A stretch of DNA of 32,000 nt from Candidatus Heimdallarchaeota archaeon (GCA_030668875.1 DAOVER010000025.1:1-32000), one strand, 5' to 3'. Shown: positions 6,027 to 9,065, numbered from the stretch's first letter. Numbers and translations are program-made. Notes: a model not told the origin generated them from the letters alone.

Positions 6027-7535
6027 ATGAAAAAAAGGATTATTACAATTGGACTTTTAATTTTATTAAGTTATAGTATAATCGGTTTTGGTTTACAACA
6101 AGTAACTGCAGAAGAGTATCCCCCTGCTTTATCTCTTATAGCTCCCCACAAAGCAAGCATCTTTCTTGATGCTTCAAATAGCGAATGGGATGATTATTAT
6201 CAAGGCTATATTGATGTAACAGAATTTTCAGATGTTTCTTCTGCTTCTACAGAAGCTGTTGATATCATAAGCGTAACTATTAACTTTGCACATAACTCAA
6301 CTCACCTTCATGTGTATGCGTTTATTCCTGAAGACTATGGAATTGTTAACGGACTCCTCTTACATTTCTTTGGGAAACCAGGTATGGAAGATGGAATTCA
6401 AATGGACGCAGTATATGATACAGTATTAGATGTAGCATGGGCAGACGAAGGTGTATATGAACCACCCAAACCTGATGAATTCTTAGGAGGAACTCAGGAT
6501 GCTAAAGCAAAAACCTTCAGACACATAGGAGTTGGAACATATTTTGAAGGAACTAAATTAATCAATTCTGGAGACTCTTTAGGTAAAGATATTGCTTTAG
6601 GATGGGGACAAGCCATAGCCGTTGAAGTCTTAGTTTGGGTTGGAACTCAACCAGATGTAGAAGGACCAAATTGGGGTTCTATCAATCAAGATGGTTTCAG
6701 ATATATTCGATTGGATATAGGTGCTAACCAAGGAGATGAACTGGATATCTACGTTCCAGAACCTATGGAAATGAATTATGTAGTTGGTGAAGAATATGAA
6801 GCTGAATATATATCAACTTCTATAACAATTGATGGACAAGATACGGATTCAGTTTGGGCAGATGTTATTGAATATAATCTCTCCATAAGTGGGTATGACT
6901 TCAATACTGGAACATGGTACTCAGAAGATAAATTGGATGGATCACTCAAGGTATTCCATGATGGAACAAATTTCTATGTGCTCTTCAAGATTTATGATGT
7001 AACCATAGATGAACAAGACAACACAATGTTCATGATTGGAAAAACTGAAAATATGTTAAACACTACAGATGGAATAGACTTCGTTTCAGTTAATTCAGAT
7101 GAATATTACGATCAGATGATTATTCCTTCTGATGGTTCTGGACCTAAAAATGATATTGATGTTGGAGGCAGTAATGATGGTGAAGGAAATATAACTTATC
7201 AAGGAAACTATAGATATACAGAATTTTCTAAACCGATGAATCCAAATGATCCAAGTGGCAAGGATTTTGATTTTGCTGCTGGAGATACAATGTTTATATC
7301 ATACCTTATAGCTCAAGATAGTGATACTGGACCAAACTACTTCCATATGAAAGACGCTAATGGTACAGTAGCATTTATTGTAAATCCAGTTAGGTTTCTT
7401 GCTGAAGGTGAAGAACCTACAGGTGGAGATAACCAAAACACTTTTTCTATTGGATTTAGCACTATCGATCTTTTCCTAATCTTAGCTGCATTATCGCCAG
7501 TAGTTCTATTAGTTTATAGAAGAAAGAAGAAGTAA
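6027..7535 (+). CDS. Cell-surface protein with signal peptide, two tandem DOMON/CBM9-like domains and C-terminal membrane anchor
   Basis: MKKR plus a hydrophobic stretch ending VTA. Internal repeat pairs: IFLDA..W / ITIDG..W, AHNSTHLHV / FHDGTNFYV, PKPDEFLGGTQD / PKNDIDVGGSND, YFEGTKLINSGDSLGKD / YTEFSKPMNPNDPSGKD. Ends SIGF, TM helix, RRKKK. Confidence 0.7.
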   Translation: MKKRIITIGLLILLSYSIIGFGLQQVTAEEYPPALSLIAPHKASIFLDASNSEWDDYYQGYIDVTEFSDVSSASTEAVDIISVTINFAHNSTHLHVYAFIPEDYGIVNGLLLHFFGKPGMEDGIQMDAVYDTVLDVAWADEGVYEPPKPDEFLGGTQDAKAKTFRHIGVGTYFEGTKLINSGDSLGKDIALGWGQAIAVEVLVWVGTQPDVEGPNWGSINQDGFRYIRLDIGANQGDELDIYVPEPMEMNYVVGEEYEAEYISTSITIDGQDTDSVWADVIEYNLSISGYDFNTGTWYSEDKLDGSLKVFHDGTNFYVLFKIYDVTIDEQDNTMFMIGKTENMLNTTDGIDFVSVNSDEYYDQMIIPSDGSGPKNDIDVGGSNDGEGNITYQGNYRYTEFSKPMNPNDPSGKDFDFAAGDTMFISYLIAQDSDTGPNYFHMKDANGTVAFIVNPVRFLAEGEEPTGGDNQNTFSIGFSTIDLFLILAALSPVVLLVYRRKKK

Positions 7536-7559: not shown

Positions 7560-9065
7560 TTATTCATCATTAATATCGCTTAGATTGCATATCCAAAGTG
7601 GCCTTCTTTCAATGAAAGTGTACAAATTCTCAGCAAATGTAGAATCTAATTCATAAATTTCTCTTAGTTTTTCATCTATTCCTAGCACTTTCATTTTCTC
7701 TTTGATTTCAACTTTTAGAAAGGAATCAACATTGAGAACAAAGGTGTTTTTCTTTACTAAGCTTTCTAGAAAGTCCCGTATTTTTTGACCCTTTTTACTC
7801 AAATGTACTGCCCATCTTTCATTATCAATAAAAGGTCCAGCTACAACATCAATATGCTTCGAATAGTGTTTCAAGAATTTTAGAGAATCCTTAGAGGTTA
7901 TTTCCGGACCATCCTTTCTAAGCGATAACTGAGGATCGGCATTCATCAAAGAAATCATTAATCCGTAATAATCGTCGGAAACAAATGCGTGAGACCTTTC
8001 AAGGATATAATTATTTGAAAAAATTTCAGAAGCAAATGCAGATTTAATGGATAATGTTTTCTGCCAACAAATTTCAGCTTCTTGAAATTTACGTTTGAGA
8101 ATGAGTATTAGTGTTTCCCTCCCAGTTGAAATGATTTTTCTTACTAAAGTATCAAATGGTGGGATTTCACACACAAGATCCTCAAAGAAATGTAATGTAG
8201 GTTCAAACATGTAGGTATTAGCTGCTGCAATAAGTGACATAAATTGCAACATAGAAACATCAGCTGCGACATTATCTTTAGGATTTAAGGGGTCTTGCAC
8301 GTAAAGAGGATAATAACGACTAAGCATTTCACTTGTTAAAGAATCAACATCCTCAATCTGCACTTTTTTCCTTTTGATATCGATTATGGTTCTAGGTTTC
8401 CAACTACTGATGCCTATAATAGCTTCCCAAAAGGAACCATAGAATACAATTAGTAGCTCACATAGATACCCGTTAAAACCTACAGCACCAATTTCATTCC
8501 GATACACACCTACAGTTTTCATGAACTTCTTAAGCAGCAAAACCTCATTCCTATCTTGTTCTTGCATATGAGTAAGGAGATATTGTGTATGCATTGGGAT
8601 TGAATCAAAAATAGAGATTTGTTTCTCTCCTTGTGATACTTCAAAACCTACAAATAAATTTACGACTTCATCCCCAGCAATAATCCGCAAATGAGGTATT
8701 TTACCTGTCTGTTTTTTCACTTCTAAGAGAGAATTTCTAATCCTATCTTTTTTCAAACGTTTTACAAGTGAATCGAGGATTTGGTGGACTTTTGCTCTTT
8801 CAGCCTGTGGTAATATCAACAAAAGATCATAGACTTCGTCTTCTCCGAGGTAGGTTTTCCTAATAAAGGACCCTTGAACTTCTACTCTTCCTTTGAAACC
8901 TAGAGAAGTAAGATCTAACAGAATTTTTTCTTTAAGAATAGACAAAACTTCTCTGATTTCCTCATGTCTTTCCCATTGAACTTGGATAACTTCAATAACT
9001 TGCTTCTCAATTTTCTTGTGATGTTTGTTATTTTTATAGTCTGAAACAGATGATTTTTCACTCAT
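7560..9065 (-). CDS. cca: Class I (archaeal) tRNA CCA-adding enzyme homologue with apparently degenerate active site
   Basis: QGSFIRKTYL, EVLLLKKFMKTVGVY, GFNGYLCELLIVFYGSF, DPLNPKDNVAA and GP..D..RW are class I CCA family hallmarks. Adjacent to thpR, as is common in archaea. Several key residues are substituted (see findings). Confidence 0.85.
   Translation of the reverse strand: MSEKSSVSDYKNNKHHKKIEKQVIEVIQVQWERHEEIREVLSILKEKILLDLTSLGFKGRVEVQGSFIRKTYLGEDEVYDLLLILPQAERAKVHQILDSLVKRLKKDRIRNSLLEVKKQTGKIPHLRIIAGDEVVNLFVGFEVSQGEKQISIFDSIPMHTQYLLTHMQEQDRNEVLLLKKFMKTVGVYRNEIGAVGFNGYLCELLIVFYGSFWEAIIGISSWKPRTIIDIKRKKVQIEDVDSLTSEMLSRYYPLYVQDPLNPKDNVAADVSMLQFMSLIAAANTYMFEPTLHFFEDLVCEIPPFDTLVRKIISTGRETLILILKRKFQEAEICWQKTLSIKSAFASEIFSNNYILERSHAFVSDDYYGLMISLMNADPQLSLRKDGPEITSKDSLKFLKHYSKHIDVVAGPFIDNERWAVHLSKKGQKIRDFLESLVKKNTFVLNVDSFLKVEIKEKMKVLGIDEKLREIYELDSTFAENLYTFIERRPLWICNLSDINDE

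Follow-up and report, generated by a model that had tools for sequence, protein, structure and literature searches.

[quoted passage not shown]

Results

A cca1-like gene among genes for tRNA 3′-end maturation

The window, by which we mean the whole 32,000-nucleotide stretch of DNA that was analysed, comes from a MAG of the family Heimdallarchaeaceae (Asgard). On its minus strand, positions 7560..9065 hold a cca1-like gene whose reading frame begins with ATG, is open throughout and encodes a 501-aa homologue of class I CCA-adding enzymes with a degenerate active site, a member of what we refer to as the 'silenced CCA1' clade. In a Pfam profile search, the 501-aa protein matched the neck family PF09249 (E 3e-29) and the C-terminal family PF21133, and had no match to PF01909, the family of the catalytic head. 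TIGR03671, the NCBIfam equivalog model for EC 2.7.7.72, aligns to the protein from end to end, at 212.8 bits, which is below its cutoff of 281.3. The open frame and the end-to-end match bear out the original prediction that the gene encodes a full-length, uninterrupted class I CCA scaffold.

The gene directly upstream, thpR (9095..9655, also on the minus strand), encodes an RNA 2′,3′-cyclic phosphodiesterase of the 2H family (TIGR02258; 135.2 bits against a cutoff of 65.7). The catalytic motifs of ThpR are intact, and neither of the two H-x-T motifs varies among 26 orthologues. The spacer between the thpR stop codon and the cca1 start codon (9066..9094, minus strand) is 29 nt long and includes a GAAGGTG ribosome-binding-like motif before the ATG. 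This spacer is too short to leave room for a separate promoter, and the two genes are likely transcribed as a bicistronic unit.

Upstream of thpR there is an AT-rich, TATA-like box, and a UPF0200-type P-loop kinase-like gene (9737..10327, plus strand; Pfam AAA_17/AAA_18, NF006226) runs divergently from thpR. This is followed by a gene for a UPF0201/PF01877 'RNA_binding' protein, assigned by profile match (10324..10773, plus strand). Further along, on the minus strand, are genes for RNase Z, the tRNA 3′-trailer endonuclease (10776..11684; NF000801, 271.1 bits against a cutoff of 252), and for a THUMP-domain tRNA guanine-N2 methyltransferase-like protein (11689..12717; Pfam THUMP and UPF0020), for which the top family, TIGR01177, scores 266.9 bits, below its cutoff of 316.55. 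Judged from these assignments, the neighbourhood of cca1 is one of tRNA 3′-end maturation genes.

The same arrangement is found across the source family (f1), where thpR lies upstream of cca1 on the same strand at 25 of 26 loci, with stop-to-stop frames that abut or overlap in most. In the sister families with canonical enzymes, f2 and f4, the CCA1 genes of f2 and of one f4 genome are paired with thpR likewise, and in two f4 genomes thpR adjoins the canonical CCA1 gene on the opposite strand. In the Hodarchaeales-like family (f3), the kinase-thpR pair is retained and unrelated genes take the cca1 slot. Since the pairing of thpR with cca is common to the canonical CCA1 of the sister families, it is taken as the ancestral arrangement, which supports the proposal that the cca1-like gene has been kept at its ancestral place. 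We found no earlier literature on cca-thpR linkage.

Two of three catalytic carboxylates are replaced throughout the family

The catalytic triad of the Archaeoglobus fulgidus enzyme (AfCCA) is Glu59/Asp61/Asp110 (PMC3794860). We mapped substitutions by phmmer alignment of the window protein to solved AfCCA chains (1R89, 2ZH7 and others; E 3e-25). The equivalent of Glu59 is V78, and Asp61 is retained as D80; both lie in the stretch D76-E77-V78-Y79-D80 (codons 8826..8840, minus strand). The third catalytic carboxylate, Asp110, is replaced by N136 (codon 8658..8660, minus strand), such that D80 is the only one of the three to be kept. The nucleotide-selecting Arg, R224 in AfCCA, is replaced by D264 (codon 8274..8276, minus strand). 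Of the surrounding motifs, GS..R.T is retained, YAEHPY has become TGKIPH, DRTPFH has become DSIPMH, and GFSGY has become GFNGY. The alignment reproduces every active-site substitution that had been listed originally, and the codons were verified.

These changes are not unique to one assembly. Position 78 is V, T or S, and position 136 is N or H, in all 26 family orthologues, which represent five genera; in four canonical sister-family enzymes position 136 is D. Position 264 is D, E or N across the family, and N in the genus of Ca. Heimdallarchaeum aukensis (H. aukensis). Across the same 26 orthologues, DRTP has changed to D[SLY]xP and GFSGY to GFNGY. The 501-aa sequence itself was found in four separate metagenome assemblies from one study. 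We conclude, from the aligned residues, that the substitutions are ancestral to the family and reflect neither chance nor error.

A second set of positions has not changed at all. D80 does not vary among the 54 aligned proteins, degenerate and canonical together, and is one of 18 positions that are invariant in both groups alike, including also S66, D154, H159, K179, Y200, E203 and N265. The phosphate-binding positions (GS, K179, H159 and Y200) are likewise invariant. A further 47 positions are invariant in the 26 clade members and absent from canonical relatives, and many of these surround the former active site. Among the clade-specific features is an acidic motif, E238-D239-V240-D241 (codons 8343..8354, minus strand), which is invariant in all 26 family members, is followed by YYP(L/I)YV, and lies in an insertion in the neck domain that canonical enzymes lack. 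The loop is modelled at low confidence, with a pLDDT of ~51 for residues 241-250, near the EDVD. The clade-invariant positions and the EDVD insertion argue for a functional protein rather than a relic.

The degenerate enzyme arose once and is under purifying selection

We surveyed 46 genomes of the order, using TIGR03671 to detect class I enzymes and PF01743 to detect class II enzymes. Genomes of f2 and f4 carry a class I enzyme (4/4; 277-323 bits) and no class II enzyme (0/4). In the source family, 26 of 29 genomes have a class I homologue, at 180-243 bits and in every case below the cutoff, and 25 of 29 have a class II enzyme. In f3, a class II enzyme is present in 11 of 12 genomes, and class I matches are limited to partial head-domain matches of 24-31 bits (4/12). 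In the source genome itself we found a single class I homologue and a single class II gene, the latter on contig C34; the search for a second CCA enzyme that the original prediction had suggested thus finds one.

The survey independently reproduces three states of CCA-enzyme content described in a 2026 preprint (Cassidy, Doktor, Betat, Morl, Prohaska; bioRxiv 10.64898/2026.05.29.728689): Heimdallarchaeaceae ('Heim12') carry both class I and bacterial-type class II enzymes, Gerdarchaeales class I only, and Hodarchaeales class II only. The same work found that H. aukensis CCA1, made as a recombinant protein, has no activity at all on tRNA, the substrate being yeast tRNA-Phe lacking CCA, that CCA2 adds CCA, that the templating Arg is Asn in H. 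aukensis CCA1, and that the key CCA1 substitutions are conserved across Heimdallarchaeaceae. The window protein is 52% identical to this orthologue and resembles it in belonging to the same clade, in having lost the carboxylates and the Arg, in coexisting with a class II enzyme and in having thpR as its neighbour. The two differ in that they come from different genera, and in that Arg has become Asp, a charge reversal, in the window protein but Asn in H. aukensis CCA1.

A search of 5.8 billion proteins returned 37 clade members, which share 52-100% identity and all lack PF01909; where a source name is given, it is 'hypothetical protein' in nearly every case. There is a gap in identity beneath the 52% limit of the clade, and canonical enzymes begin at ≤28%. 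The clade is monophyletic with the CCA1 proteins of H. aukensis and H. endolithica (28 sequences; SH-aLRT 100), and by this tree it arose once. Its stem measures 2.4 substitutions per site and its internal branches are short, consistent with a burst of change followed by constraint.

In 26 genomes, two of which are closed, the reading frame runs its full length without interruption; the orthologue in genome G010 stops ~6 residues early. For nine pairs with unsaturated dS, the dN/dS of cca1 (Nei-Gojobori) is 0.03-0.145, well under the value of 1 that had been proposed as the benchmark for selection on this gene, and in 9/9 pairs it is lower than that of thpR (0.08-0.35). Strong purifying constraint extends over all four domains, the head being no less constrained than the others. 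The Heimdallarchaeum pair gives omega values of 0.033 (inactive CCA1), 0.080 (thpR) and 0.104 (active class II enzyme).

CCA is encoded in tRNA genes and a class II enzyme is intact

The class II gene of the source genome (C34:5162-6592; PF01743, 90.8 bits) has intact GGxVRD..DVD, RRDFTIN and EDYLRILRAVRF motifs. Its product is 39% identical to the Heimdallarchaeum enzyme and 26-34% identical to f3 enzymes. We considered whether the gene might be contamination and rejected this: it lies on a 91.6-kb contig with a GC content of 0.339 that ranks 5th of 99 in nearness to the genome tetranucleotide mean, and the gene recurs in 25/29 family genomes, including two that are closed.

We counted tRNA genes that encode CCA using ARAGORN, at sampled loci in a few genomes. 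In the source family, CCA is encoded by 33 of 35 predicted tRNA genes in the source genome, both exceptions having implausible introns, and by 33 of 34 in H. aukensis (G044). The corresponding counts are 30/30 in an f4 genome (G028), 12/14 in an f2 genome (G024), and 6/21 and 6/30 in two f3 genomes (G029 and G031, respectively). On these gene predictions, the source genome covers its need for CCA independently of CCA1, through gene-encoded CCA and a class II enzyme with intact motifs, which agrees with the earlier expectation that CCA must be supplied in another way. More generally, the presence of a class I gene, live or dead, goes together with gene-encoded CCA, so that de novo addition would be unnecessary in those genomes. 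By the same reasoning, de novo addition would be necessary in the class-II-only family f3, since most of its tRNA genes lack CCA. Gene-encoded CCA is thus a plausible explanation for how the loss of CCA1 catalysis could be afforded.

The predicted structure is that of class I CCA-adding enzymes

An AF2 model of the window protein (pLDDT 88.3, pTM 0.84) indicates that the head-neck-body-tail four-domain fold is intact. AfCCA structures were the top Foldseek matches to this model (E 4e-32, TM 0.66-0.76), and structural alignment to AfCCA gave Z 28.8, with 434 residues aligned at an rmsd of 5.0. At 22% sequence identity, the window protein shares with A. fulgidus CCA (PDB 1R89, 4X4N) the four-domain fold and the equivalents of the GS motif, D61, H133, K152 and Y173. 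Unlike A. fulgidus CCA, it has altered beta-turn, DRTP and GFSGY motifs, a ~13-residue neck insertion that includes the EDVD, and extensions at both its N- and C-termini.

The best match outside the CCA-adding enzymes was Utp22, which ranked 15th in the Foldseek search (E 4.6e-12, 11% identity). The window model aligned to Utp22 with Z 21.4 and to NOL6 with Z 20.1. As a control, we modelled a canonical f4 CCA1 (pLDDT 91.2), which gave Z 29.3 with AfCCA, 22.0 with Utp22 and 21.5 with NOL6. For the window model, TUTases and poly(A) polymerases score on a level with Utp22 (Z 20-21). The head and neck of the window model are also matched, at Z 12-21, by the DZF domain of NF45/NF90, by MiD49/51 and by MAB21L1, in which the NTase fold has been kept for binding over catalysis. 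MiD51, for instance, binds ADP without turnover. These proteins belong to unrelated lineages and, unlike the window protein, are without the body and tail tRNA-binding domains. A predicted complex of CCA1 with ThpR, based on two alignments, scored 0.04 against a mark of 0.32, which we take as evidence neither for nor against an interaction.

Discussion

A retained protein, proposed to act at tRNA ends

The substitutions in the window protein, together with the inactivity of the H. aukensis orthologue (bioRxiv 10.64898/2026.05.29.728689), agree with the original prediction of a catalytically degenerate class I enzyme. That inactivity has been published, so the pseudoenzyme status of the clade was already known. 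The interpretation as a pseudoenzyme is therefore right but not new, and its extension to Utp22 is unsupported. The window protein is itself presumably inactive, by analogy with an orthologue 52% identical to it that was assayed on one substrate. D80 is kept, and the acidic residues D76 and E77 stand just before the strand, so some residual or different metal-dependent chemistry is possible to judge by these residues.

We think it probable that the window protein is a class I CCA enzyme that has lost CCA-adding catalysis and has been kept as a working protein that binds tRNA ends. In every family member, two of the three metal-binding carboxylates and the templating Arg are replaced. According to this model, since tRNA genes already encoded CCA, addition would have been needed only for repair, and replacement by an imported class II enzyme would have been tolerable. 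The former enzyme would now bind the acceptor or 3′ ends of tRNA without catalysis, perhaps with nucleotide binding retained, and would probably act with ThpR and RNase Z in 3′-end repair or quality control. Conservation and gene context both point to such a tRNA-binding role. The family is less basic than the f4 canonical enzymes (pI 5.6-8.5 against 9.0-9.3), so that stronger RNA binding is not favoured, although with a pI of 5.8 for f2 canonical enzymes the comparison is not informative.

Rather more tentatively, the protein may have been re-purposed, in that a remodelled, strictly conserved pocket (D80, D76/E77, N/H136 and EDVD) and its conserved coupling with ThpR would equip it for a new role at the 3′ ends of tRNA. 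Such a role might be the sensing or handling of ends with a cyclic phosphate or 2′-phosphate, or the guarding of gene-encoded CCA during processing by RNase Z. A new role of this kind would explain why selection is tighter on this protein than on the active class II replacement.

Alternative explanations

The remodelled pocket might instead be a new active site, the protein being a nucleotidyltransferase or other RNA-end enzyme with a changed substrate or chemistry; it could act, for example, on the 2′-phosphate/3′-OH ends made by ThpR, by way of D80, D76/E77, N/H136 and EDVD. The 47 clade-invariant positions, many of them at the former active site, would fit such an enzyme, as would the EDVD insertion, the invariant GS, K179, H159 and Y200, a head domain constrained like the remainder of the protein, and the conserved operon linkage with an intact ThpR. 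However, V/T/S and N/H at two of the three metal-ligand positions cannot bind Mg2+ canonically, confidence in the modelled EDVD loop is low, and we know of no NTase-fold enzyme that works with such an arrangement. Moreover, the H. aukensis orthologue adds no nucleotide in vitro (bioRxiv 10.64898/2026.05.29.728689), and we regard a new active site as unlikely. The same assay, together with loss of the E59, D110 and R224 equivalents, weighs against a CCA-adding enzyme that continues to work redundantly with class II, for which the full-length fold and the many retained substrate-binding positions could be cited; we consider this highly improbable. Least credible is a decaying pseudogene or an error of assembly or sequencing. 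The score below the equivalog cutoff, the NCBI name 'hypothetical protein' and the G010 orthologue that is ~6 residues short might suggest decay or error, but both are refuted by the full-length frame in 26 genomes (two of them closed), by dN/dS values of 0.03-0.15 and by the occurrence of the changes in five genera.

The original prediction went further in proposing a candidate intermediate towards Utp22/NOL6, which would make the protein an incipient factor of ribosome biogenesis. Utp22/NOL6, a eukaryotic 90S pre-ribosome factor, resembles the window protein in being NTase-derived, in its degenerate carboxylates and in its domain types; Utp22 is accepted as a derivative of class I CCA enzymes whose active sites are also degenerate (PMC3794860), it is the top non-CCA structural match, and the Heimdallarchaeia lineage is close to eukaryotes. 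However, the canonical sister-family CCA1 model resembles Utp22 and NOL6 at least as closely, and at 11-15% identity the two are no nearer to the window protein than to canonical CCA1. Utp22 is also a tandem fusion (PMC3794860) of two modules, about 1,100-1,240 aa in length, that binds Rrp7 and pre-rRNA, whereas the window protein consists of one module of 501 aa. All 65 proteins obtained within our search range of 275-877 residues are 284-514 aa long. Homology between Utp22 and CCA enzymes is undetectable by sequence (PMC3794860), so it is weak evidence that the Nrap/Utp22 Pfam families had no match at E ≤ 1 in the 54 aligned members and that Nrap (PF03813) had none in the source genome, which is 92% complete. 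The gene context concerns tRNA processing rather than ribosomal RNA, the clade is restricted to one family, with the gene missing from the Hodarchaeales-like family, and catalytic residues can be lost convergently. We conclude that a step towards Utp22 is very unlikely, and favour a non-catalytic protein of tRNA ends.

Implications

Searched by term, the main text of the preprint yielded nothing on tRNA genes, repair or synteny. What the present analysis adds to that text is the strength of selection, the synteny with thpR, the invariant EDVD insertion and the observation that gene-encoded CCA has been lost from the family with class II only. An essential-looking enzyme of information processing has been displaced by a bacterial one in the archaeal lineage closest to eukaryotes, and, as published, three states coexist within one order: class I alone, dead class I with class II, and class II alone. 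It is of interest that purifying selection is stronger on the dead copy than on the live enzyme that replaced it, as is the role of the dead copy beside ThpR and RNase Z. That role can be tested directly, since enrichment cultures exist for two Heimdallarchaeum species and the proteins can be expressed in E. coli. Gene-encoded CCA has largely been lost in the class-II-only family, which is a eukaryote-like state; if upheld, this would tie the structure of tRNA genes in a concrete way to which CCA enzyme is used.

Gene neighbourhood and clade-specific insertion of the degenerate CCA1

The thpR-cca1 pair, in which cca1 encodes the class I CCA-adding-enzyme homologue with a degenerate active site (dead CCA1), adjoins a conserved tRNA-maturation neighbourhood (window positions 9737-12717, both strands) comprising a UPF0200 kinase-like gene, a UPF0201 (PF01877) gene, and genes for RNase Z and a THUMP methyltransferase. 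On the other side of cca1, and convergent with it, lies a gene for a 502-aa secreted protein (6027-7535, + strand) with a weak CBM9-like match and a C-terminal transmembrane helix followed by a basic tail. This gene is present in 12 of 20 loci of the same genus, and is absent from the examined loci of other genera.

The neck domain of dead CCA1 carries a clade-specific insertion with the motif E-D-V-D (residues E238-D241; 8343-8354, - strand), which is invariant in all 26 family members, as is the YYP(L/I)YV sequence C-terminal to it; the insertion has low confidence in the structure model. Contig JBHLQZ010000149.1, labelled Candidatus Thorarchaeota, encodes a protein that belongs to this Heimdallarchaeaceae-specific clade (68% identity). 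The corresponding MAG is probably mislabelled or misbinned.

A divergent class II CCA enzyme and loss of cca1

The genome containing the window also encodes a 476-aa class II CCA enzyme (CCA2) with a TTG start (contig C34, 5162-6592, + strand; equivalently 1315-2745 of locus L002). It scores far below every cutoff of the NCBIfam class II equivalogs (best 123.5 bits versus 438.8), such that automatic annotation would leave it unnamed. Its motifs are nonetheless intact, and it represents a very divergent class II lineage.

In the Hodarchaeales-like family, which has CCA2 only, five loci (L064-L068, from genomes G033, G027, G031, G025 and G029) retain the divergent kinase-thpR pair, but unrelated genes lie downstream of thpR where cca1 would sit: either a small GTPase-like gene, or a gene on the opposite strand for a membrane protein of ~177 aa. 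We conclude that cca1 was cleanly excised.

Gene-encoded CCA follows the CCA-enzyme repertoire

We counted tRNA genes with an encoded 3′ CCA in all contigs of the window's genome and in loci L069-L195 from G029, G028, G044, G031 and G024. On contig C15 of the window's genome and in G029 and G031 loci, ARAGORN predicted genes with introns that it labelled ‘tRNA-Stop (tta)’, ‘tRNA-Pyl (cta)’ and ‘tRNA-SeC’. Given that the C15 gene (3151-3261, + strand) shares its 3′ end with a tRNA-Arg, these calls probably reflect misplaced introns rather than suppressor tRNAs; introns are common among tRNA genes of these genomes.

Within the order, the presence of gene-encoded 3′ CCA follows the CCA-enzyme repertoire. 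The family with dead CCA1 and CCA2 encodes CCA in 33/35 tRNA genes (window's genome) and 33/34 (H. aukensis), and the CCA1-only families in 30/30 and 12/14; for the CCA2-only family, the counts are just 6/21 and 6/30. A term search of the main text of a 2026 preprint (bioRxiv 10.64898/2026.05.29.728689) found no mention of this link. The low counts in the CCA2-only family suggest that it is in a eukaryote-like state, combining a class II enzyme with CCA-less tRNA genes.
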